Shown piece after piece: positions 25,879 through 38,086 of a stretch of DNA of 64,000 nt. The stretch's first letter is position 1; the number at the start of each line of letters is the position of its first letter. Position numbers and translations under genes: made by a program. The notes beneath the pieces were generated by a model that was given only the letters and a program-made list of their open reading frames with translations, had not been told where the DNA came from and did no database searches. The stretch is taken from contig JAQXBF010000005.1 of NCBI GenBank assembly GCA_029252555.1, forward strand, positions 114,460 to 178,459, read 5' to 3'. Source of the stretch: Porticoccaceae bacterium (GTDB lineage Bacteria; Pseudomonadota; Gammaproteobacteria; Pseudomonadales; Porticoccaceae).

Positions 25879-27063
25879 TTAGTCCTTTTTAAAATCTTTA
25901 ATAAGAGGCACTAGAATCGACACAAGCTGATCCGCTTCTTCATTGGTCATAACAAAGGGTGGCAATAATCGAATCACCGAGTCTGCGGTCACATTGATAA
26001 TTAATCCTTTATCCATGGCGGCCATAAACAAGGATTTACAGGGTTTGGTTAACTCAACGCCGATCATACAGCCGCGCCCACGAACTTCCTTCACGTGGTC
26101 AATATCGGCCAGTCCATATTTCAAGGCAGCCATAATCCGTTCGCCCAATTCTCCGGCGCGAATATCTAGCTCACCCTCAACTATTGCAGTGACTGCCGCA
26201 AGCCCGGCTGCACAGGACAGAGGGTTGCCGCCAAAGGTCGAGCCATGATTGCCAGGCTGCATTAATTTTGCCGCTTCACCGGAAGCCAAACAGGCTCCAA
26301 TAGGGACCCCATTGCCAAGACCTTTTGAGGTGGTGACTACATCGGGAAGGATGCCGCTGTGCTGATAGCAGAAATATTTTCCAGTGCGGCCATTGCCAGT
26401 TTGCACCTCATCTAACATCAGTAACCAGCCACGCTGATCGCAGAGTTCTCTGAGTTTTTTCAGGTACTCTTCATCTGCGACTCTGATACCGCCTTCCCCC
26501 TGAATCGGTTCTACAAAAATGGCGCAGATATCAGGGTTGTTGTCACCCATAGTTTCCAGAGCCCTGATGTCATCAAACGGGCCACGGGCAAAACCATGCA
26601 CCAGAGGTTCAAAGCCCGCCTGCACTTTGCGGCTGCCAGAGGCAGTTAAGGTGGCCAACGTGCGGCCATGAAAAGCATCGTCCATCACCAAAACAGTGGG
26701 CAGTTTGATGCCTTTTTTATGGCCGTGGAGCCGTGCCATTTTAATAGCGGCTTCGTTGGCTTCAGCGCCTGAGTTGCCAAAGAAGACATTGGTCATCCCC
26801 GAGATTTCCCGAAGCTTGTCGGCGAGCTGTAATTGATTGGGGATTTCAAAAAAATTGGAACAATGGGTTAGAGTACTGGCCTGTGTGGATACTGCGGCAG
26901 CTATCTTCGGGTGGGAGTGGCCAAGGCCACAGACTGCAATTCCTGAGAGAGCATCAAGATATTTGTTGCCTTTATCATCCCACAACCAAGCGCCTTCACC
27001 TTTAACCAAGGTGGCCGCTCTGGCTCCGTAGGTATTCATTACAGCGCTAGTTGCCATGTCCAT
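25879..27063 (-). CDS. argD: Acetylornithine aminotransferase (class III, PLP)
   Basis: NSGAEANEAAIK, FHGRT, EPIQGEGG, DEVQTGNGRTG, KGLGNG; adjacent to argF. Confidence 0.95.
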   Translation of the reverse strand: MDMATSAVMNTYGARAATLVKGEGAWLWDDKGNKYLDALSGIAVCGLGHSHPKIAAAVSTQASTLTHCSNFFEIPNQLQLADKLREISGMTNVFFGNSGAEANEAAIKMARLHGHKKGIKLPTVLVMDDAFHGRTLATLTASGSRKVQAGFEPLVHGFARGPFDDIRALETMGDNNPDICAIFVEPIQGEGGIRVADEEYLKKLRELCDQRGWLLMLDEVQTGNGRTGKYFCYQHSGILPDVVTTSKGLGNGVPIGACLASGEAAKLMQPGNHGSTFGGNPLSCAAGLAAVTAIVEGELDIRAGELGERIMAALKYGLADIDHVKEVRGRGCMIGVELTKPCKSLFMAAMDKGLIINVTADSVIRLLPPFVMTNEEADQLVSILVPLIKDFKKD

Positions 27064-27084
27064 TTCTCTGACGGTTTCGGAATT

Positions 27085-27148
27085 AAAAAAGGGCAGCTTT
27101 GCTGCCCTATTTAGTTAAGAGTATAAGAATATATGTGTTTTTTTTCAA
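27085..27148 (-). promoter_or_regulatory. Sigma70 promoter of argDF followed immediately by a terminator-like hairpin
   Basis: Minus strand TTGAAA (27148-27143), 17 bp, TATACT (27125-27120); then AGGGCAGC-AAA-GCTGCCCT-TTTTT (27108-27085). Confidence 0.6.
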
Positions 27149-27190
27149 TTCTCTGGAGCCATAATTCGCTCCGCTAATGTGCTTCCCAGT

Positions 27191-28108
27191 TTACTTAGCG
27201 AAGTAAAATCGCCGCCACATGCTCAAGCCAAAGCCCAGCGATAAGAACCAAACGAATAGCTCTATCCAGTTTGGATTACTGTTGTAACCAAAAAAGCCTT
27301 TTAAAAACACCCCAATATGCCCTTTATCATGGAGCAGGTGGGTATATCGTTCCTTGTTATTGAGGTTATAGTTATAAAAAGCAGGGTTGTCAGATGGCTG
27401 CAGAGCCTCGACTGGTTTCAATATGCTGTACGGTCTTGCGATATCATTTTTTGATTCGAGCCCAATGAGTTCTAGATGATCTCCTTTAACCAAAAACTCT
27501 TCTACTTCATGGGTGCCATAGGTCATCATGCCCGAGGCGAAAATAACCAGCAGCAGGCTGGTAATTCTAAAGTATGAGCGTAGGTTCGACTTTTTACCCT
27601 GAATAACAACTGCGTAACCAATAATGATTGCGATAAATAAACCAGAGAAGAACCCTAGGTAAGAAAACGACTCCATCATGGAGAAGCTGCCCATTAGGAA
27701 GATTACCGTTTCAAAGCCTTCCCGTAAAATGGCGAAAAATACAATTAGAAAGACTCCCCAGCCAGCAGTGGCAATTGCTGCGTTTGTTTCCGCGGCCAGT
27801 TCAGAGGTCTGCCCAACCTGTTTTGAAAGCCAAAAAATTACGTACCATATAAGACCAGCAGTGATAAACATTGAAACGGCTTCAAACAGAGCTTCTATGG
27901 AGGCGTTGCCAATAGATGCTTTCACGCGCATTAGCAGCATTCCCGACAGTATACTGGCGATGATCGCGCAGCCCACACCCAGCCAAAGTTGCTTGATTTC
28001 TCTTTTTAAGCCCTGCTTGTGCAATAGGGTATAAATTATTCCAACGATTAATGCTGCTTCCATGCTCTCGCGGAACATAATAATAAATTCATTCATAGTC
28101 ACTGCCAC
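27191..28108 (-). CDS. FTR1/EfeU-family iron permease
   Basis: Two REXXE motifs (FRESMEAALIV, LREGFETVIF), multiple TM helices, Fur-like box upstream. Confidence 0.9.
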   Translation of the reverse strand: MAVTMNEFIIMFRESMEAALIVGIIYTLLHKQGLKREIKQLWLGVGCAIIASILSGMLLMRVKASIGNASIEALFEAVSMFITAGLIWYVIFWLSKQVGQTSELAAETNAAIATAGWGVFLIVFFAILREGFETVIFLMGSFSMMESFSYLGFFSGLFIAIIIGYAVVIQGKKSNLRSYFRITSLLLVIFASGMMTYGTHEVEEFLVKGDHLELIGLESKNDIARPYSILKPVEALQPSDNPAFYNYNLNNKERYTHLLHDKGHIGVFLKGFFGYNSNPNWIELFVWFLSLGFGLSMWRRFYFAK

Positions 28109-28197
28109 TCATGTATGTAGTTGTTGGAGATTTAAGTGCCGAGTTTAATAACTTCTTTGAAGGTCTATTCAAACCGCATTATACAGCAGGATGCTCA

Positions 28198-28216
28198 AAT
28201 GCAAATAGTTATCATT
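28198..28216. promoter_or_regulatory. Putative Fur box upstream of the FTR1 permease (divergent from grxD)
   Basis: AATGCAAATAGTTATCATT; core TGCAAATAGTTATCA matches 11/14 defined positions of TGATAATNATTATCA. Confidence 0.7.
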
Positions 28217-28345
28217 ACTGTTAATACGCAAATTTAGTGCGGCTAAGAACTATATTTTGATTCATCGCGTAAATTTGATTCCGGAAACAGGGCAAACGCA
28301 GTAAAATGATCTCCCGCCATCGTTTTTATTAAAAGGTTAATATCA

Positions 28346-28675
28346 ATGGACATCATGGATACAATTCGAGACCAGGTAGAAAATAATTCAGTGCTTCTTT
28401 ATATGAAAGGGTCGCCGAATCAGCCTCAATGTGGCTTTTCGTCGCGTACTGTTCAGGCATTGATGGGCTGCGGTCACCGGTTTGCCTATGTCGATATTTT
28501 GTCTAATCCAGAGATTCGGGAAAATCTGCCGCTTTTTGGCAACTGGCCTACCTTTCCGCAACTGTGGGTTGCTGGCGAGTTAATCGGCGGTTGCGATATC
28601 GTTACCGAGATGCACGAAAAAGGTGAACTCAAAACACTGATTGATGAAGTTGTTGAGTCTGAAAATCCAGAGTAA
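28346..28675 (+). CDS. grxD: Monothiol glutaredoxin Grx4
   Basis: LYMKGSPNQPQCGFS, NWPTFPQLW, GGCDI. Confidence 0.97.
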   Translation: MDIMDTIRDQVENNSVLLYMKGSPNQPQCGFSSRTVQALMGCGHRFAYVDILSNPEIRENLPLFGNWPTFPQLWVAGELIGGCDIVTEMHEKGELKTLIDEVVESENPE

Positions 28676-28893
28676 GGCTGCCAACAGTACGTTTGGGCTC
28701 TCCAATAGTAAGGCAGAAGGTTTAACCCGAACTTTACCTAGCGTGCTGTTATCCCCCGTTCAAAGCCCCGTCTAATATTTTTCTTCCTTGCCAGATTCAT
28801 GCTGCTAACGCAGTGTGACTAGGGGTATTGGCGCCCGCAGAAACAGTAATAACCTCCACCTTGATCAGAAATTAATGCGCACTGAATAAATTG

Positions 28894-28930
28894 TTGACAT
28901 CATTAATACGAATCATTATCATTTGCATTT
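28894..28930 (+). promoter_or_regulatory. Sigma70 promoter overlapped by a Fur box, upstream of the DUF4856-imelysin-TBDR operon
   Basis: TTGACA (28894-28899), 17 bp, TATCAT (28917-28922); overlapping TACGAATCATTATCA (28907-28921; 11/14 to the Fur 7-1-7 consensus) continuing TTTGCATT. Confidence 0.8.
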
Positions 28931-29083
28931 ATTGTTGATGAGATGTTAGTTGGAAGCAAGCTAAAGCGACTCATCTGTTGAGTGCTATGTGCCCTTAAGA
29001 AACATCCGCTGGGTAAAGCATAACCCACCTACTGACTGGCGTTGGGCCAGCAATCGGTAGATTAAAATGATCAAGGAAGTACT

Positions 29084-30775
29084 ATGAATTTCAAGTTACT
29101 GCTGTCTAAATCTCTTATTGGGCTGTCCCTGTGTCTGTTGGTTGCCTGTGGCGGCGGTGGCGGAGGAAGTACTCCAGCACCTGTGGTTACAGATACTGAT
29201 GGTGATGGTGTAGCTGACACATCTGATGCTTTCCCAAATGATGCTTCAGAGTCGACGGATGCTGACTCAGATAATGTTGGAGATAATGCGGATAATTGCC
29301 CCGATAATGCCAACGAGGCCCAGGCAGATACCGACGCCAATGGGCAGGGTGATGCCTGTGACGCAATGCCAGAGATATATAGCTATACCAACTCAACCTA
29401 TACTGCAGACAGTGACTCAGTGAGCTATACCGGTCAAACTGCTAGACACATGCTTATTTCTGGCATGGTTGACTATATGTCAGCTATGACAGAGTCTGGG
29501 AAAACCAAGGCGGAATACATTACTGATCTGGATTTTTTTATGAATGGCGATGGTGCTGATGGAGCATCTACTGGTTTTAGGCTCAAAAATGGCGCTGCCG
29601 ATGGCAGTGATGTAGATAGCGCAGCGACCTATGGCGCAGTATCTTCTGGTAAGAATTTAGATGGAAAAATTGCCGGTGGCAATGGCGAGGGTGGCGGTGA
29701 GACCTCAAAGTTAATCGGGGGTGAGTTCTTTGGCTGGTCAGACGGGCTATCTCTGGGTTCTCTGCCGATTAACCTAGTAGACCTCTGGGTCGATCAGCTG
29801 GCAACTCAGGCATCAGATGGCATATCGGTAACGGTTTCAACGGTCGATGGCGATGTTAATGTCAGCAGCGTTCAATACGACGCTCATGGCCGTAATCAGC
29901 GTCAGTTATTGCAGAAGTTTTTGCTGGGCGCTGTGACCTTCTCTCAGGGCACTAATGATTACTTCCAGGCAGATTTCGCCACTGAGATTGCTGAGCAGGA
30001 AGGCAGCAAAAATTATTCTGCCGGCGAGCACAATTTCGACGAAGCTTTTGGCTACTTTGGCGCTGCACGGGATAACAATGCATATACCGATTTGGAAGCC
30101 CGCGCTAAAAGCGGCCGAGACGGTTGGAAAAATGGTTACTACGATACAGACGGCAATGGTCTGATCAATCCTCGTAGTGAGTTTAACTTCGGCAATGCCC
30201 AGAACTGTGCGAAGCGCGATGTGGGTACTGCAGATAATGCTAATCCCACTGACCTCTCGACGGAAGCTATGAATGCATTCTTGGCGGGTCGTCAAATTCT
30301 GAGTAATGCGGCCAATACAGGTACCATGACTGCGGATGAAGAGGCAGCTCTAGCTGTGCAAATCAAGGCTGCGGCACTGACCTGGGAAAAATGCATTGCA
30401 GCCACAGTGATTCATTATATTAATGATGTCACTGCTGATATGAGTAACTATTCTGCGGGCAGTTATGCTGATGTTGCTAATTTCACCGATGTAGGTAAGC
30501 ACTGGTCTGAGATGAAAGGTTTTGCATTAGGTCTTCAGTTCAGCCCATTCTCGCCCTTCCGAGATGAAGCCGTAACCACTGTTGATCTCAATGATTTGAA
30601 AACACTGCTTACAGATCTTGGTGACGCACCTATGCTGGCCGACGGTAGCCAAGGTGGTGTTTTGGCTGGTGATACAGATGCTGCCATCGCCGCGTATACT
30701 TCCAAGCTCGCTGCCGCTAGGCAGACATTGCAAGCTGCCTACAGTTTCGATGCAGATAATGTTGCCGGTTGGTAA
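29084..30775 (+). CDS. DUF4856-like lipoprotein with N-terminal thrombospondin type-3 (Ca-binding) repeats
   Basis: Lipobox LVAC plus Gly linker; DTDGDGVADTSDAFP...DNCP...DTDANGQGDACD; SYTGQTAR, HNFDEAFGYFG, QNCAKRD, KHWSEMKGF recognised as DUF4856-type motifs. Confidence 0.8.
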   Translation: MNFKLLLSKSLIGLSLCLLVACGGGGGGSTPAPVVTDTDGDGVADTSDAFPNDASESTDADSDNVGDNADNCPDNANEAQADTDANGQGDACDAMPEIYSYTNSTYTADSDSVSYTGQTARHMLISGMVDYMSAMTESGKTKAEYITDLDFFMNGDGADGASTGFRLKNGAADGSDVDSAATYGAVSSGKNLDGKIAGGNGEGGGETSKLIGGEFFGWSDGLSLGSLPINLVDLWVDQLATQASDGISVTVSTVDGDVNVSSVQYDAHGRNQRQLLQKFLLGAVTFSQGTNDYFQADFATEIAEQEGSKNYSAGEHNFDEAFGYFGAARDNNAYTDLEARAKSGRDGWKNGYYDTDGNGLINPRSEFNFGNAQNCAKRDVGTADNANPTDLSTEAMNAFLAGRQILSNAANTGTMTADEEAALAVQIKAAALTWEKCIAATVIHYINDVTADMSNYSAGSYADVANFTDVGKHWSEMKGFALGLQFSPFSPFRDEAVTTVDLNDLKTLLTDLGDAPMLADGSQGGVLAGDTDAAIAAYTSKLAAARQTLQAAYSFDADNVAGW

Positions 30776-30822
30776 ACTTTCAAAAGCCCGGAAATCAGGG
30801 GCAGAATGGGTTAACATCATTT

Positions 30823-30844
30823 GGGGCTAGCTTCGGCTAGCCCT
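30823..30844 (+). other. C(UUCG)G tetraloop hairpin between operon genes 1 and 2
   Basis: GGGGCTAGC-TTCG-GCTAGCCCT followed by TACTT. Confidence 0.75.
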
Positions 30845-30866
30845 TACTTATTGGAGAGACAATCAA

Positions 30867-32147
30867 ATGGTTCGTTTTTACGGTTCTATGGCCCTTTTAG
30901 TGCTGTGTCTAACTGGGTGCGTAGATAAATCTCGCGACATTGCCTCGCCGGTAGCGGCTAGCGGAGGTGGTGGCAGTACCGGCTCAACAAACACGTCTAT
31001 TACTGGCACAGAGCAAGCCTTTGATCGCGCCGCTCTGATGACTAATCTGGTCGATTCTATTTTTATCCCGAATTATGAGGCAACTGCGACACTGGCTGAT
31101 TCATTTTCTGCAGGCTCTGGTTCTCTCGCCACCTATTGTGATTCTATAGGTACTGCCGATGAAGCCGTGAGCCTCACAGCTGCGCAAACTGGTTGGTTGG
31201 CATTGATGGATGCGGTACAAAAAACTGAGATGCATGTTATTGGCCCTGCATTGCGTAACGATGAGGCATTGCATAACCGAGTTCACTCTTATGCCGCTGG
31301 TAGCCTAGCGACATGTGCGCTTGACCAGGCTGTTATCGAAGCCTCCAGCACCAACTTCCAAGTTGCTAGCCGCGCATTTAATCAGCGGGGCATGGGCGCT
31401 CTCGAGTATCTTTTGTTTAACAGCAACCTCGACCACTCTTGCTCTAGTCAAATTCAGGCAACTACTACTTGGAATGATCTGGCGGAGTCCGATCGAAAAG
31501 CTCAACGTTGCGAGCTCGCAGAAAAATTAGCTTCAGATGTGGCCGTGGCATCCAATCTAATCTATAGCCAATGGACGGAAGGAGAGACGCCATACCGAGC
31601 AGAATTCTTAAATGAAGATAGCCAAGGGGAAAACTTCCAGTTGATAACCGATGGCATTTTTTATCTGGAAACATTCACCAAGTCTCAAAAGCTAACGATT
31701 CCACTGGGTCTTGATGACAAATGCAGTTCGCTGACTTGCCCCAGCTTAATCGAATCGCCTTACAGCAAAACCTCATTGCGCAATATTAGAACCAATGCCG
31801 CTGAGTTTTTAACCATCTTCAATGGTGGAGAGGGCCTGGGTTTTGATGACCTGATCAATAACGAAGACTTCGCCGAGATTACTTCGCGCTTCCAGGGTCA
31901 GCTGAGCCTGGTGGACAGCAAGATTGCTGGGATGTCTGGCACGCTCAGTGATCAACTCACTTTGGTCGAAGCCGATGCGAATGATCCAGCCTGCATCAAT
32001 GCGTTTGCCAATCCAGACGATGAGAGTGCTATCCCTGTGTGCAGTCTAGCGGGTTCACTAAAGCGAGTAACGGATGATCTTAAAATTGAATTTGTGACTA
32101 TAGTTGGTGTTGCGATTCCAGGAAGGGTGCAGTCTGATAATGACTAA
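30867..32147 (+). CDS. Imelysin-like (peptidase M75/IrpA-type) lipoprotein
   Basis: Lipobox LTGC, Ser/Gly/Thr linker, FIPNYE, RGMGALEYLLF, KLTIPLG, ESPYSKTSLRNIRTN, C-terminal SDND. Confidence 0.8.
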   Translation: MVRFYGSMALLVLCLTGCVDKSRDIASPVAASGGGGSTGSTNTSITGTEQAFDRAALMTNLVDSIFIPNYEATATLADSFSAGSGSLATYCDSIGTADEAVSLTAAQTGWLALMDAVQKTEMHVIGPALRNDEALHNRVHSYAAGSLATCALDQAVIEASSTNFQVASRAFNQRGMGALEYLLFNSNLDHSCSSQIQATTTWNDLAESDRKAQRCELAEKLASDVAVASNLIYSQWTEGETPYRAEFLNEDSQGENFQLITDGIFYLETFTKSQKLTIPLGLDDKCSSLTCPSLIESPYSKTSLRNIRTNAAEFLTIFNGGEGLGFDDLINNEDFAEITSRFQGQLSLVDSKIAGMSGTLSDQLTLVEADANDPACINAFANPDDESAIPVCSLAGSLKRVTDDLKIEFVTIVGVAIPGRVQSDND

Positions 32148-34308
32148 AGCGAATCAAACAATCTGGATGTCTGTCTTTTTACTGATGGCATCCAATGCAA
32201 CAGCTCTTGATATTAAAGCTCCTACCATTGAAGAAGTTTTAATTATAGGCAGTAAGGAAGATAAGTCGAAGCTGGCAGGCTCCGGCATCCAGATAGGGCA
32301 GGAGCTGATCGAAAAGCAAGGGTACACTGATCTCAACCAAGTCATCAGTATGGCTCCAGGAGTGTATGTCCGAGAGGAAGATGGATACGGGCTACGCCCA
32401 AATATTGGTATCAGGGGCGCCACTGCAGAGCGCAGCCAAAAAATCACTATTATGGAAGATGGGGTATTGATTGCACCTGCACCTTATTCTGCTCCAGCCG
32501 CTTACTACATCACCAATGCAGCGAGACTCCATGCATTAGAGGTTCTTAAAGGGCCAGCTTCGATTCAGTTTGGCCCCCATACTGTAGGTGGCGCTGTTAA
32601 TCTGGTTACCAGGCCTGCGTCTTGGCAGAGTTTTGCTGAACTCCATTACACAGCAGGCACAGATGATTTCCAGAAACTGTCGGCAACCAGTGAATTTGTT
32701 AGCGACAATGTCAGCTATATGTTCGACGCCATGCACTACTCCAGTGATGGTTTCAAAAAACTTGAGAACGGTGCTGATACCGGCTTTGTGCGCAATGACT
32801 TCAATGTCAAAGTGCACTGGCGGCCAGAAACTCAGTTGAATCAATCCGTGGTGCTCAAAATAGGCTATGCGGATGAAGATTCAAATGAGACCTACCTGGG
32901 GTTGACGGATAACGATTTTAATCAGAATCCAACGCTGCGTTACCCTGCATCTCAATTAGATCAATTTGTGTCTGACCACAGCCAGATTCACTTGAATCAT
33001 AAAATTGATTTGGACAATAGCCTGCAGCTCAGCACCAAAATTTACTTCAATGAGTTTAACCGCTCCTGGAATAAATTTGACGGCTTTATCGATGGGCCAA
33101 ATGGGAAGCTAGTGCTCAGTGCGCCAAGTCAGTATCTCTCTGCTTATGAGGTTTTGGCAGGCATTACAGATAGCGCATCAGTCGGGCTCACCGTTGATGT
33201 GACAGACAATGATCGAGCTTACAGCTCTGAGGGTGTTCAGTTTGATCTCTCTAAGCAACTTAGCTTTGGCAGTTTTGAACATAAATTCGATCTAGGTGTC
33301 CGCTACCACCATGATGAGGTGGAACGAAACCATCAGCAGCGCAGTTATCTAATGACATCTGCTCAGCTAGTCAGCGATGGTATTGCTCGGCCAGCAAAGG
33401 TTATTAATTACGCCGAGACTGATGCGATTGCGCTTTACCTTCAGGATGAAATTACCAAAGGAGATTTCACACTCAGCCTGGGTGTTCGATATGAGGATAT
33501 TCAGGGCAGTGTCGACAATAAGCAGACAGACTCACTGTCATCGAACAATCAATCTATTTTAGCCCCTGGTGCCGGTGTTCATTATCAGCTAACTGAAAAT
33601 ATCGGCTTGCTAGCTGGGGTCTATGTTGGATTTTCTCCCGCAGGGCCCGGTAAATCTTCAGCTGAAGCCGAGGAGAGTCTCAATTTTGAGTATGGTATTC
33701 GCTATGAGGCCAACAGCTACTCCGCAGAGATAATTGGCTTTTTCAGTGACTATGACAATCTACTGGGCCGCTGTAGGGCATCAGATGCTAACTGCGCCGT
33801 CGGTGAAGAGTTTAATGGTGGCCATGTAGAGATAGGCGGCGTCGAACTCAATGGTAACTTTGAGTTGTCGCTGACCGAATCTATTTCTCTGAATTCACAG
33901 TTAAATTTCACCTACACGGAGACTGCCTTCCAGAAGTCGTTCCTGTCACAATTTTCCCAGTGGGAGCTAGTAAAAAAAGGTGACGAGCTCCCCTATGTCC
34001 CTGAGTATGTGGGGCGCTGGCAGGTGGGTTTTGGCAACAGCAACTGGGCTGTTGATGCTGCGGTTAAATACCAGCATGAGATGCGCGAGGTGCCGGGCGT
34101 TGGTGATCTTATCCCTGGCCAGCAAACAGAGAGTCTGGCGACCCTTGATCTTTCAGCAACCTGGTATGTCAGTGATAGCCTGAATTTAAAACTGATGGTT
34201 AGAAATGCGACAGATGAATCAGCGATTGTATCTCACCGGCCCTATGCGGCGCGGCCAAATTTACCTCGTATGGTTCTCGGTCAAATTAGGTATCGGTTTA
34301 ATCCCTAG
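32140..34308 (+). CDS. TonB-dependent receptor (FecA-like, Fe-type)
   Basis: Signal peptide, TonB box-like IEEVLIIG, PGVYVREEDGYGLRPNIGIRG, EVLKGPASIQFGPHTVGGAVN, terminal aromatic beta-strand; ATG 32140 overlaps the upstream stop (ORF track starts at 32104). Confidence 0.93.
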   Translation: MTKANQTIWMSVFLLMASNATALDIKAPTIEEVLIIGSKEDKSKLAGSGIQIGQELIEKQGYTDLNQVISMAPGVYVREEDGYGLRPNIGIRGATAERSQKITIMEDGVLIAPAPYSAPAAYYITNAARLHALEVLKGPASIQFGPHTVGGAVNLVTRPASWQSFAELHYTAGTDDFQKLSATSEFVSDNVSYMFDAMHYSSDGFKKLENGADTGFVRNDFNVKVHWRPETQLNQSVVLKIGYADEDSNETYLGLTDNDFNQNPTLRYPASQLDQFVSDHSQIHLNHKIDLDNSLQLSTKIYFNEFNRSWNKFDGFIDGPNGKLVLSAPSQYLSAYEVLAGITDSASVGLTVDVTDNDRAYSSEGVQFDLSKQLSFGSFEHKFDLGVRYHHDEVERNHQQRSYLMTSAQLVSDGIARPAKVINYAETDAIALYLQDEITKGDFTLSLGVRYEDIQGSVDNKQTDSLSSNNQSILAPGAGVHYQLTENIGLLAGVYVGFSPAGPGKSSAEAEESLNFEYGIRYEANSYSAEIIGFFSDYDNLLGRCRASDANCAVGEEFNGGHVEIGGVELNGNFELSLTESISLNSQLNFTYTETAFQKSFLSQFSQWELVKKGDELPYVPEYVGRWQVGFGNSNWAVDAAVKYQHEMREVPGVGDLIPGQQTESLATLDLSATWYVSDSLNLKLMVRNATDESAIVSHRPYAARPNLPRMVLGQIRYRFNP

Positions 34309-35186
34309 TGGAAACAGTACTGCTTGACTTACTCGCGACGCCGGCAGAATTTTTACTCGATTCTGCCAAGCGTGTATATTGGTTATATTTATTAAGTGCT
34401 CTTTTGATAGCCTCCTATGTGGTTGCGCGGCAATCAAGTGGGCTGCAACCACTGGTGCAACTAAAGAGCCTTTTTAATCCTGGATACTGGTTCTCTAAAT
34501 CCACTTCCTTGGATTACTTCCTCATGTTTTTTAATAACGGCATGAGGGTTCTGCTGCTAGTACCTTTATTTGGTAGCCACCTGGCACTCACGATTCTAGT
34601 GGGTTCATTTCTCCAAGACAGTTTGGGTGACGCCCCTGATCTGGCCGTGAGTTGGTTTTTTATTGCTTTGCTGTTCAGCACTGTTTTCTTCCTTGTCGAG
34701 GACCTGAGTCGCTTTCTTCTCCATTACTGTATGCATCGTTTTGATTTCTTGTGGCGCTTCCATAAGACTCATCACAGTGCCACGGTTTTAACACCGTTTA
34801 CCCTGTTTAGAGTGCATCCGATTGAGCATATCCTTTACTTTACCCGCGGCCTTCTGGTCTTTGGTGTGGTTAGCGGTCTGTTTATCTGGCTATTTTCTGG
34901 CAAGCTCACTGGCTTGCAGGTACTCGGTGTTGATGTCTTTGGCTTTGCGTTCAACATGCTTGCGGCGAACCTCCGGCATTCTCATATATGGATATCTTTT
35001 GGTAAATTCGAACGTGTCTTTATTAGCCCAGCTCAGCACCAACTGCACCATAGCAAAGAGCATAAATTCGCTAATCTTGGAAGTGTTCTTTCGATTTGGG
35101 ACGCCTGGCTGGGAACTAGAACCTATTCTGTAAAAAGAGAGACTTTACAGTTTGGGCTCAAAGATCAGCCGGCACAAAATTCTTAG
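34308..35186 (+). CDS. Sterol desaturase/fatty acid hydroxylase family membrane di-iron protein
   Basis: His boxes LHYCMH, FHKTHH, VHPIEH, RHSH, HQLHH; TM segments; GTG start overlaps the TBDR stop. Confidence 0.88.
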   Translation: METVLLDLLATPAEFLLDSAKRVYWLYLLSALLIASYVVARQSSGLQPLVQLKSLFNPGYWFSKSTSLDYFLMFFNNGMRVLLLVPLFGSHLALTILVGSFLQDSLGDAPDLAVSWFFIALLFSTVFFLVEDLSRFLLHYCMHRFDFLWRFHKTHHSATVLTPFTLFRVHPIEHILYFTRGLLVFGVVSGLFIWLFSGKLTGLQVLGVDVFGFAFNMLAANLRHSHIWISFGKFERVFISPAQHQLHHSKEHKFANLGSVLSIWDAWLGTRTYSVKRETLQFGLKDQPAQNS

Positions 35187-35219
35187 CATCGCTCTATGAC
35201 AACCATAAAAACATTCTAT
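35183..35219 (+). promoter_or_regulatory. Putative OxyR binding site upstream of the peroxiredoxin gene
   Basis: TTAG-N7-CTAT-N7-ATAA-N7-CTAT versus consensus ATAG-N7-CTAT-N7-ATAG-N7-CTAT (14/16, exact spacing). Confidence 0.75.
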
Positions 35220-35308
35220 TGGTATCGATATTTGCGTTGTGTGAAGATTCGCGGCTTCAAAATTTAGTAAACCTCACTTAGCTTTAATTAATCACACAGG
35301 AGTAATAC

Positions 35309-35914
35309 ATGGGTGTTTTAGTTGGACGGTCAGCACCTGACTTTACCGCAGCAGCAGTCACCGGCAGCGGAGAAATTGTAGATAGTTTTAACCTTAGCAA
35401 CGCGATCAAGGGAAAGAAAGCCGTTATTTTCTTTTACCCTCTGGACTTTACCTTTGTTTGTCCTTCCGAGCTGATCGCCTTTGATCATCGCTATGAAGAA
35501 TTTCAAAAGCGTGGTGTAGAAGTCATTGGTGTCTCAATTGATTCCCAGTTCTCTCACAATGCATGGCGCAATACCGCAATCAATGATGGTGGTATTGGCG
35601 CAGTACGGTACACATTGGTTGCCGATGTTAAGCATGAAATCTGTCAGGCCTATGATGTAGAACACCCCGCCGATGGCGTTGCTTTCCGGGGTTCTTTCTT
35701 GATTGACGAGCAGGGTATGGTGCGTCATCAGGTGGTTAACGATTTGCCGCTGGGTCGTAATGTGGATGAGATGCTGCGTATGGTTGATGCTCTTAGCTTC
35801 CACGAAGAGCACGGCGAAGTTTGCCCAGCGGGATGGAATGTTGGCGATAAAGGGATGAAAGATACTACAGTCGGTGTTGCTGAATATCTGTCGGAGAACG
35901 CCGGTGCCCTATAA
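35309..35914 (+). CDS. 2-Cys peroxiredoxin (AhpC/TsaA family)
   Basis: FYPLDFTFVCPSE, GEVCPAGW. Confidence 0.96.
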   Translation: MGVLVGRSAPDFTAAAVTGSGEIVDSFNLSNAIKGKKAVIFFYPLDFTFVCPSELIAFDHRYEEFQKRGVEVIGVSIDSQFSHNAWRNTAINDGGIGAVRYTLVADVKHEICQAYDVEHPADGVAFRGSFLIDEQGMVRHQVVNDLPLGRNVDEMLRMVDALSFHEEHGEVCPAGWNVGDKGMKDTTVGVAEYLSENAGAL

Positions 35915-35952
35915 GGGTAGCTGCGCTTCAACAGACTGAAGCAAAAATGATT

Positions 35953-35982
35953 AACCCCGCGCTTAAAATCGCGGGTTTTTTT
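35953..35982 (+). terminator. Intrinsic terminator after the peroxiredoxin gene
   Basis: AACCCCGCG...CGCGGGTT followed by a T run. Confidence 0.75.
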
Positions 35983-36102
35983 AACCTCGAGAACAATTGG
36001 ATTTTTAACCAGCCATCAGTTATTGAGGAAGTCAGTCACATATTAGTCTTGCAGGGTTCGCTACCATAGCGCCTGTATTTTCTCATTCCCCAAGGACGAA
36101 TC

Positions 36103-36852
36103 ATGAAACTATTGCCAAAGCTGCTCAGTGCCACATTGTTACTTACTCCTCTCACCGCAACAGCTGACTTTATGTGGCTCTATACAGGGAGTGGCAGCTG
36201 GCAGGCAACGCCCGCGGGCAATGTGGGGCGCACAGATATAGCGTTGGATTCGACCCTTAACCTTGACCAAGAAGCCAACCAGTTTGCCTATATCGCGATA
36301 GAGCATCCTATTCCAGTGCTGCCCAATCTTCGAGTTCAGCACAGTGAGATGACTTGGACTGGCAATGCTTTAATCACGGCGGGCACAGATTTAAATGGGA
36401 CTCCATTTACCTCAACTCAGCAAGCCGATATTGCCTTGGATCTAACTCATACTGATGCCACTCTTTATTATGAGGTGTTTGATAATATTGTGAATCTCGA
36501 TCTTGGGATCACCGCAAGGCTCTTTGATGATGAAGCCAGCCTGATTGGCACGGAACAGCAGGAGAGCATGGATCTAGAGGCAAAGGTGCCACTGCTCTAG
36601 GGCAAGTTAGGTTTTTTAGTGCCCACAACGGCCCTCTCTGGAAATATTTCGGCCAACTGGATAAACGTCGATGAGTTTAGACTGGTAGATTGATCAGCAG
36701 AGCTTAGCTACGAGTTCGATCTTCTACCAGCAATGGATGCTGGGATTATTCTTGGTTACCGCTCCATGCTGATTGAATTAGATGATCTCGATGAACTGCA
36801 GTCGGATGCCACTTTTGATGGTTACTTTTTAGCCCTGCAGCTACATTTTTAA
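36103..36852 (+). pseudogene. Outer-membrane beta-barrel protein (TIGR04219-like) with two in-frame stops
   Basis: Signal peptide, YIAIEHPIPVLPNLRVQH, DATLYYEVFDN; TAG at 36598-36600 and TGA at 36691-36693; the same frame continues to GYRSM...FDGYFLALQLHF-TAA at 36852 (terminal Phe, typical of OMPs). Confidence 0.8.
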
Positions 36853-36860
36853 TCAAGCCC

Positions 36861-37412
36861 TTAAACCCTTTTACTTCGCCAGGGGCGAGAAATTTCCTCA
36901 TGTTTAACGGCATATTCGCCGGTCTGGCGATCCTTGAGGTAATGATCAAGGGCCAGCTCGACGACTGGAAAAGCTAATTCAGACCAGGGGATATCGGCCT
37001 CATCAAATAGCGCTACTTCAGAGGACTCTGAGCTGGGCCCAAATACGGGCTCAGCGAGATGGGCGCGATAGAAAACATAGACCTGATTAATCTGCGGTAT
37101 ATCAAACAACGCGTACAGTTCTGGGTTCACCACATGGGCGTTGGCTTCTTCGACGCATTCGCGCAGAGCACCATCCAGGGACGACTCTCCATTTTCCAGA
37201 AAGCCAGCGGGCAATGTCCAAAAACCGTGTCGTGGCTCAATGGAGCGTTTGCATAGCAGCACCTGGTTGCCAAAGATAGGCAGTACACCAGCGATGACCT
37301 TTGGGTTTACGTAATGGATAAAATCACAGGCAGTGCAGACATGGCGCTCCCGATTGTCACCCTCGGGTATTTTTTTTATAACGGCATTGCCGCAAACGGA
37401 ACAAAAATTCAT
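36861..37412 (-). CDS. NUDIX hydrolase with N-terminal zinc ribbon
   Basis: FCSVCG...CTACDFIHYVNPK; Nudix box GFLENGESSLDGALRECVEEA. Confidence 0.92.
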   Translation of the reverse strand: MNFCSVCGNAVIKKIPEGDNRERHVCTACDFIHYVNPKVIAGVLPIFGNQVLLCKRSIEPRHGFWTLPAGFLENGESSLDGALRECVEEANAHVVNPELYALFDIPQINQVYVFYRAHLAEPVFGPSSESSEVALFDEADIPWSELAFPVVELALDHYLKDRQTGEYAVKHEEISRPWRSKRV

Positions 37413-37453
37413 GAAAAGCTCAGAAAATTAACAGAGCCGAGTATAATGCACAA

Positions 37454-38086
37454 ATGCTTGAAACAATCAAAAACCAGCTAAAAAAATTCCCGCTCAACCC
37501 GGCTAAGCCTAGCCAACAAGACTCTGGTGCCACGGCTGCAGTTTTGGTGCTACTCCATGGTGCACAGGATAATCCTAAGGTGGTATTAACACAGCGCGCA
37601 ATGCATCTTAACAACCATGCTGGGGAAGTGGCCTTTCCCGGAGGCATGTGGGACCTCACAGATGAGAGCCTGCTGCATACTGCACTCCGGGAAACCCACG
37701 AAGAAATTGGCTTGTCCGCCGATCTGGTTGAGCCCATTGCGATGTTACCTGTGGCATCCCCTAAGCGGCGCACACTTCGCGTAACGCCATTTGTGGGTTT
37801 GGCTAATGGGCCACTAGAATTGCACTCTGAGCCCTCGGAAATCACCGCTATCTTCGATGCACCGGTTAGTTTATTTATCGACATCAATAATTATCAGTAT
37901 TTTGAAATGACAAATGAGCAGGGTGCTCTGCGTTTTCCCTTTCTTCCGTATAAGGGTTATAAAATATGGGGATTTACCTTAAAAGTGCTAGTCGATATGT
38001 TGAATACCACATTAGACGCAGGGGTTGATTTAAAATACCCCAGTGATGAATTAATTGAAGAGTTACGCTCAAGAGGGCAGCAATGA
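37454..38086 (+). CDS. CoA pyrophosphatase (NudL-like NUDIX)
   Basis: AAVLVLL, LTQRAMHLNNHAGEVAFPGG, TALRETHEEIGL, IWGFT. Confidence 0.9.
   Translation: MLETIKNQLKKFPLNPAKPSQQDSGATAAVLVLLHGAQDNPKVVLTQRAMHLNNHAGEVAFPGGMWDLTDESLLHTALRETHEEIGLSADLVEPIAMLPVASPKRRTLRVTPFVGLANGPLELHSEPSEITAIFDAPVSLFIDINNYQYFEMTNEQGALRFPFLPYKGYKIWGFTLKVLVDMLNTTLDAGVDLKYPSDELIEELRSRGQQ

Follow-up and report, generated by a model that had tools for sequence, protein, structure and literature searches.

The window analysed here, a 64-kb stretch of Porticoccaceae bacterium GCA_029252555.1 (contig JAQXBF010000005.1; genome G000), contains four co-oriented genes at 29084-35186 which, as judged from comparative sequence analysis, probably constitute a conserved, Fur-controlled, TonB-dependent cassette for iron acquisition, encoding a DUF4856 lipoprotein (g1), an imelysin lipoprotein of the His-less type (g2), a FecA-like receptor (g3), and a membrane di-iron protein with His boxes (g4). 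An earlier note on this DNA had placed the four genes behind a TTGACA-17-TATCAT promoter with a Fur-like box, all of which features we recovered, and had described an uncharacterised TonB-dependent system linked to iron, with neither a siderophore ABC transporter nor a peroxidase in the locus, which description likewise holds: of the open reading frames (ORFs) between 24958 and 36600, none encodes an ABC transporter, a DyP/EfeB protein, or a multicopper oxidase. Hundreds of bacterial species, most of them marine and chiefly Gammaproteobacteria, appear to carry the cassette.

Species-representative genomes hold at least 532 relatives of g4, of which we used the best 80 loci for neighbourhood counts, searching the stop-to-stop ORFs of these g4-centred loci with phmmer and then with jackhmmer. 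The order DUF4856–imelysin–TonB-dependent receptor–FA_hydroxylase (g1-g2-g3-g4) was found in 42 of those 80 loci, which span Porticoccaceae, Halieaceae, Spongiibacteraceae, Cellvibrionaceae, Alteromonadaceae, Pseudoalteromonas, Shewanella, Thalassotalea, Psychrobium, and Woeseia; further loci hold truncated or rearranged versions, and the metagenomic contigs L001 and L003 display the complete order as well. The closest relative among the reference genomes is an uncultured Porticoccaceae metagenome-assembled genome (locus L004), whose g4 is 82% identical to the one in the window. The genome of the window itself (2.3 Mb; completeness 97.5%) encodes a Fur gene.

With respect to regulation, we scanned the region from -350 to +20 of g1 for a 19-bp Fur consensus in the 47 loci with a g1 orthologue, and found that the best match scored 14/19 or better in 30 of them and 15/19 or better in 17, against control rates for the same two thresholds of 3.9% and 1.0% in random windows from the same loci, and of 4.7% and 0.6% when the upstream regions were shuffled. 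This enrichment is large, although the formal p-values overstate it because the loci are non-independent, and the initial view of an iron-linked, Fur-boxed system gains from the retention of the box across orthologous loci. Within the window, four sites score at least 14/19, three of which lie inside ORFs; the site at 28902, upstream of g1, is the sole intergenic one.

The g4-type protein, for its part, is an integral component of iron loci rather than a bystander, and the most constant element of the set. The protein matches PF04116 with 75.6 bits (gathering threshold, 31), contains the boxes HX3-4H, HX2-3HH, and HX2-3HH, and has nine histidines that are invariant in 16 sequences (H139, H143, H152, H155, H156, H224, H244, H247, and H248). 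Its family comprises 984 representative clusters at E <= 1e-30—that is, about 1,000 clusters at 50% identity—with relatives in the genomes of more than 500 species and thousands more in marine metagenomes. In the previously proposed mechanism g4 had no role, which omission is not consistent with the comparative data: in 74 of the 80 loci the g4 relative lies beside an imelysin, a DUF4856 protein, a TonB receptor, a di-haem oxidoreductase (DHOR, PF06537), or a ferric-type solute-binding protein, and fusions with such proteins recur. Among 300 genomes drawn evenly from the class, 14 had the FA_hydroxylase gene, nine had DUF4856, and the six with both always had them within about 6 kb (Fisher 2e-7), an imelysin being located within about 3 kb of the FA_hydroxylase gene in 10 of its 14 carriers. 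In Vibrio and Psychromonas the g4 relatives are divergent beside a classical imelysin and di-haem cluster, and in Myxococcota a single ORF encodes the FA_hydroxylase followed by the imelysin.

Such fusions are numerous in a large protein collection, where we found at least 87 clusters joining FA_hydroxylase to imelysin, many joining it to an Fe(III)-type solute-binding protein, and about 10 joining it to a TonB-dependent receptor; 27 of the top 150 representatives of the g4 family are long fusion proteins. In every one of them the FA_hydroxylase occupies the N-terminus, with a lipobox or a hydrophobic segment resembling a signal peptide after it, which order suggests precursor-like polypeptides and would make the C-terminus of the FA_hydroxylase cytoplasmic, along with His boxes 3 and 4. 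The AlphaFold2 model of g4 (pLDDT 78) can be read as six helices with both termini inside, which topology agrees with cytoplasmic His boxes. The genes near fused or related loci include FbpB/FbpC, Fur, HemS, CCP/DHOR, and ExbB/ExbD/TonB. Single ORFs of about 1,100 residues uniting FA_hydroxylase and receptor occur at L039, L060, and L085:8001-11285, as well as in the proteins P0210-P0234; since in those the barrel forms the tail of an inner-membrane protein, cleavage would be needed, and the objection that such ORFs are topologically impossible was dropped in view of their domain order of FA_hydroxylase, signal-like segment, and receptor.

The lipoprotein g1 matches DUF4856 (PF16148) with 30.8 bits against a gathering threshold of 22.3, and its relatives in the protein collection carry the same family under the names "hypothetical" or "DUF4856 domain-containing" only. 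Both lipoproteins are acidic, as had been stated, with isoelectric points of 4.05 and 4.29. The AlphaFold2 model of g1 (pLDDT 85) is mostly helical, with residues 1-91 disordered as a Gly-rich, TSP3-type N-terminal tether; a Foldseek comparison of that model with the PDB gave no match at E <= 0.001 (4ecg appeared only at E 2.4), and no relatives of the g1 sequence were found in the PDB. The idea that DUF4856 is a diverged imelysin was rejected, in that hhalign aligned g1 and g2 over their signal peptides only and the Foldseek comparison was null. The invariant or nearly invariant residues of g1 include H316, D319, E320, H444, Y445, H473, and E476, the last two histidine and glutamate positions forming an HxxE motif; these conserved His, Tyr, Glu, and Asp residues would be candidate Fe(III) ligands and a likelier metal site than any in g2, because g2 lacks the imelysin His. 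The N-terminal spacers of the lipoproteins differ by lineage, g1 having TSP3 repeats in the window and collagen-like repeats in L001 (L001:3280-7812), from which contig the g2 orthologue also has a surface Ig-like domain; such variable spacer modules suggest a tether of tunable length.

As to g2, the protein matches Peptidase_M75 (PF09375) with 71.7 bits (gathering threshold, 23.5), its profile finds 3n8u, 3pf0, and 4ecg in the PDB, and its conserved columns include cysteines. Nevertheless, the GxHxxE motif is replaced by GMGALE and no HxxE occurs anywhere in g2, nor does the protein have a cupredoxin domain. Because the His of GxHxxE is missing, g2 is not an EfeO-type metal site, and belongs instead to the His-less GxxxxE type. 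As for a partner peroxidase of the EfeB-like or di-haem kind, no DHOR was found in the locus or, by tblastn, in the genome, of which g2 is the single imelysin. In the related locus L004 the g2 gene is split into two adjoining ORFs (L004:6494-7836), owing to a frameshift or else to misassembly.

The closest solved structure to the receptor g3 is that of FecA (1kmo/1pnz, E 5e-27), although g3 falls below every NCBIfam equivalog cut-off, including those for FecA (114 versus 1100) and TIGR01783 (129.5 versus 223.5). The receptor has no N-terminal signalling domain, the mature protein starting about 20 residues ahead of the plug.

The order of the four genes is confirmed, as are the overlaps reported at the stop and start codons of genes 2 to 4: g3 has its probable start at the ATG at 32140 and overlaps the end of g2 by eight nucleotides (ATGACTAA), while the GTG start of g4 and the stop codon of g3 have one base in common, in TAGTG. 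Equal expression of g1 and g2-g4, however, is improbable, as a strong hairpin splits g1 from g2-g4. Equivalents of that structure are present in 27 of 30 orthologous gaps, they fold far better than shuffled sequences and most resemble intrinsic terminators, and the hairpin of the window is a probable attenuator; since this conserved element separates g1 from g2, g1 is probably produced in excess over g2-g4. Beyond the hairpin there is a second Fur-like box (AATGATAATTCTTATCATTTG) in L061, L075, and L077, so that in those loci g2-g4 may have an iron-regulated promoter of their own. An Rfam scan of 26500-37500 matched no RNA family. The features of the locus are collected in Table 1.

Table 1. 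Positions, strands, and supporting scores of the cassette, its regulatory elements, and the neighbouring genes (numbering of the 64-kb window)
Feature	Position	Strand	Characteristics
FTR1/EfeU-like permease, monocistronic	27191-28108	-	PF03239, 133.7 bits
FTR1 promoter TTTGCA-16-TATAAT, with Fur-like box at 28195-28219 overlapping the -35 hexamer	28178-28219	-	13/19 (28201) and 12/19 (28195)
Grx4-type monothiol glutaredoxin (grxD/grx4)	28346-28675	+	TIGR00365, 147.2 bits (cut-off 117.1)
g1 promoter TTGACA-17-TATCAT	28894-28922	+	11/12 positions; best sigma-70 promoter in 27000-36800
Two overlapping Fur-like 19-mers, covering spacer and -10 of the g1 promoter	28902-28920 and 28908-28926	+	14/19 and 13/19
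g1, acidic DUF4856 lipoprotein	29084-30775	+	Lipobox LVAC, Gly run, TSP3 repeat, DUF4856
GC-rich UUCG hairpin, terminator-like, between g1 and g2	30823-30844	+	Fold z-score -3.35
g2, imelysin-like lipoprotein	30867-32147	+	Lipobox LTGC, Peptidase_M75 PF09375
g3, FecA-like TonB-dependent receptor	32140-34308	+	Plug PF07715, 55.7 bits; barrel PF00593, 122.8 bits
g4, inner-membrane FA_hydroxylase-family protein	34308-35186	+	PF04116, full His-box di-iron set, N-terminal three-helix extension
OxyR-like site preceding the peroxiredoxin gene; overlaps the stop codon of g4	35183-35219	+	14/16 specified consensus bases; best in the 64-kb window
AhpC-type 2-Cys peroxiredoxin	35309-35914	+	PRK15000, 343.8 bits (cut-off 301)

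The course of events that we propose would begin with iron starvation, upon which Fur would leave the g1 promoter, while the hairpin would attenuate the read-through into g2-g4 and leave g1 in excess. The receptor g3 would then import a small Fe(III) species, which g1 and g2, as tethered acidic lipoproteins, would take over in the periplasm; g4, as the sole inner-membrane protein of the cassette, would act at the inner membrane, for example in hand-over, in reductive release, or through an oxygenase reaction. In the lineage of the window the metal may pass the inner membrane via FTR1, whose gene lies near the cassette.

A number of observations weigh against an iron-acquisition role for the cassette as a whole and for g4 in particular. 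The 47 and 80 loci are phylogenetically non-independent, many being from Pseudoalteromonas, so that the statistics overstate the support, and the Fur-box score of 14/19 in the window itself is moderate. Six of the 80 g4 relatives have no iron neighbours upon checking with Pfam (L033, L044, L045, L050, L071, and L081), and four of the 14 FA_hydroxylase carriers among the sampled genomes have neither an imelysin nor DUF4856. A fold search with the g4 model yielded no significant match, Scs7p (4zr0) appearing only at E 7.5 and a TM-score of 0.29-0.32; the g4 sequence profile likewise found nothing in the PDB at E <= 1. Finally, a di-iron oxygenase facing the cytoplasm has no obvious job in metal transport, and a function of g4 as permease would be redundant in some loci, because those also encode FbpBC.

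Of the alternatives, the one with the most in its favour—though we still regard it as rather unlikely—is the joint system of the earlier note, in which the lipoproteins capture iron, the receptor imports it, FTR1 serves as the dedicated permease partnering the imelysin in the manner of EfeU and EfeO, and Grx4 and the peroxiredoxin handle the intracellular consequences. FTR1 has both REXXE motifs (RESME and REGFE, at residues 13 and 129). The second Fur-like box, reported in front of its gene, is indeed present but weak on its own score; the block is nevertheless identical in L004, where this box and that of g1 stand out as islands of identity amid diverged intergenic DNA. In L004, moreover, the genes for FTR1 and g1 diverge directly from each other; in the genome of the window g2 has no second imelysin beside it, and tblastn found no FbpA, FbpB, or DHOR there either; and the distribution of FTR1 favours carriers lacking FbpB. 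That distribution was obtained by scoring 40 cassette-bearing genomes for FTR1 (PF03239) and FbpB: an FbpB-type permease occurs in 31, being missing from G000, its relative G001, and G019, while FTR1 occurs in only four (those three and, as a weak match, G010), which amounts to three of nine FbpB-lacking versus one of 31 FbpB-bearing carriers (Fisher p 0.03, or 0.10 without G000).

The same survey, however, shows FTR1 to be absent from 36 of the 40 carriers, a lack of co-occurrence that the earlier note had itself considered would weaken its model, and adjacent to the cassette in one other locus only, that of L004; FTR1 as an obligate partner was rejected on these numbers. Nor does the EfeU/EfeO comparison agree with the proteins encountered, in that g2 has neither the cupredoxin domain nor the HxxE His of EfeO, EfeB is missing, and FTR1 scores 165.6 bits with the EfeU equivalog NF041756, below the cut-off of 255. 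FeoB is furthermore encoded in the genome, as is another FTR1-like protein that has a cupredoxin-like partner of its own, and the joint system leaves g4 without a role. What may be retained is a local function: FTR1 may have been recruited in this lineage as the inner-membrane permease in replacement of FbpABC, which possibility is suggestive only, but plausible because the lineage lacks FbpABC, the FTR1 gene has a Fur-like box, and the gene is directly divergent from g1 in L004. The second FTR1-like gene (C1:83259-85140, outside the window), of 273 amino acids, lies between a 114-amino-acid exported protein with the appearance of a cupredoxin and a 237-amino-acid exported protein, and may represent an FtrB/FtrC-type module; elsewhere in the genome there are also one FecCD-type permease, outside the window, and 18 TonB receptors.

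The two remaining members of the joint system fare no better. Although grx4 does lie between FTR1 and g1, and the peroxiredoxin does follow an OxyR-like site, as had been noted, Grx4 and the peroxiredoxin are each near the cassette in four of the 80 loci, all of the Porticoccaceae/Cellvibrionales type, and in L004 grx4 comes after g4 instead of before g1. Both were discarded as parts of the system on the grounds of this rarity and unstable position and of the peroxiredoxin's own OxyR-like site, at which no Fur box accompanies it; their adjacency is one of local synteny. FTR1, Grx4, and the peroxiredoxin are thus lineage-specific neighbours outside the conserved system. There is no terminator between g4 and the peroxiredoxin gene, so that read-through from the Fur promoter into the latter is possible; a clean terminator follows the peroxiredoxin at 35956-35975. 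Beyond that gene, at 36103-36600, lies one for an outer-membrane beta-barrel protein of the TIGR04219 family (119 bits versus a cut-off of 105), which is found downstream in L004 too.

A second alternative, that g4 is an ordinary lipid hydroxylase—OlsE-like, or acting on sphingolipids or acyl chains—which is merely co-regulated with its neighbours and remodels membrane lipids during iron starvation without handling iron, strikes us as improbable. The protein is a canonical member of PF04116 with all the His boxes intact, the nearest named NCBIfam model is OlsE, and the topology deduced from the fusions would make the di-iron site cytoplasmic, like that of known hydroxylases. With the OlsE equivalog, however, whose cut-off is 475, the protein scores 34.8 bits, and the induction of an enzyme that needs two irons when iron is scarce would be odd. 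In addition, a lipid enzyme would not lead one to expect one-ORF fusions with three different exported iron proteins, the translational coupling to the receptor in the window, the co-localisation of g4 with DUF4856 whenever both are present, or an equal linkage in receptor-less loci of the FbpABC type.

The last alternative, in which the cassette takes up no metal but a hydrophobic or organic compound for hydroxylation by g4, and in which AT-rich promoter DNA resembles Fur boxes by accident, can draw on the action of FA_hydroxylase enzymes on lipids, on the scores of the receptor below all siderophore and FecA equivalog cut-offs, and on the 14/19 of the Fur box in the window, but is very hard to sustain in view of the more than 10-fold enrichment of Fur matches upstream of g1 over both the shuffled and the random controls, the iron-specific neighbours and fusion partners (FbpA-type solute-binding protein, FbpB/C, Fur, HemS, DHOR, and imelysin), and the identity of FecA as the nearest solved receptor.

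Returning to the iron-acquisition cassette, we put forward, as a tentative and rather unlikely extension, that the g4-type proteins may form a class of inner-membrane proteins for iron handling that has gone unrecognised and which, together with DUF4856, would supply the missing inner-membrane step of the imelysin operons without EfeU and of some FbpABC systems. Possible roles for such proteins would be to accept or translocate iron and release it at the cytoplasmic di-iron site, or to free iron oxidatively from an imported ligand.

Iron limits growth across large areas of the ocean, and the carriers of the cassette include abundant marine heterotrophs of the Porticoccaceae, Halieaceae, Alteromonadales, and Pseudoalteromonas. 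The system is TonB-dependent imelysin-type iron uptake in a form with two components, g1 and g4, neither of which has a known biochemical role in metal uptake; the occurrence of two such proteins in a Fur-boxed, TonB-dependent cassette without siderophore machinery suggests that bacteria acquire iron by way of a step not yet described. The cassette would provide the first functional context for DUF4856 and for a large subfamily of the proteins annotated as "sterol desaturase family"; and, as several carriers are in culture, among them Zhongshania marina DSW25-10, Pseudoalteromonas peptidolytica and P. luteoviolacea, Catenovulum sediminis, and Psychrobium, the question is directly approachable.

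In the full-text literature we found no description of the cassette, nor any paper on DUF4856, on a link between imelysin and this hydroxylase, or on this hydroxylase in iron uptake. None of the closest known systems—the EfeU-less imelysin operons, EfeUOB, FecA, and FbpABC—is represented in the cassette by its full defining set. The likeness to certain clusters of the Bacteroidota is by description only: in Riemerella anatipestifer B739_0093-0103, depletion of iron induces a TonB receptor annotated as FecA along with hypothetical genes around it (PMC5429918), and that cluster, along with the Capnocytophaga ICS, resembles the cassette in having a FecA-annotated receptor with hypothetical neighbours, whereas the SusC/SusD-type parts found there are absent here. 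FecA is the best solved relative of g3 and shares with it a family architecture of plug and 22-strand barrel, but g3 is without the N-terminal signalling domain and is not accompanied by fecIR or fecBCDE. As in EfeUOB, an FTR1 protein with two REXXE motifs is encoded near an M75/imelysin protein, both behind Fur-like boxes; there is, however, no efeUOB operon, FTR1 being divergent and monocistronic with grx4 in between, and in g2, in the missing EfeB/DyP, and in the EfeU score the locus departs from that system in the respects given above.

The relationship with the FbpABC/HitABC importers concerns g1 and g4, in that a DUF4856 and g4-type pair precedes or is fused to an FbpA-type protein beside FbpB/FbpC in L074, L078, and L084; those loci nonetheless require neither a TonB receptor nor an imelysin within the operon, and the genome of the window has neither FbpA nor FbpB. 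A further comparison is with the Fur-regulated "EfeU-less" imelysin operons, namely the icmP cluster PA4370-PA4373 of P. aeruginosa and VC1264-VC1267 of V. cholerae (Xu et al. 2011, PMC3143127). These operons, like the cassette, contain a Fur-linked lipoprotein of the imelysin family without an FTR1/EfeU in the operon, and g2 is of the same GxxxxE type as the His-less imelysin subgroup IPPA/PA4372/VC1266 (Xu et al. 2011, PMC3143127); the cassette differs from them in having no DHOR or EfeB-like peroxidase and in adding to the imelysin a TonB receptor, a DUF4856 lipoprotein, and a membrane protein with His boxes.

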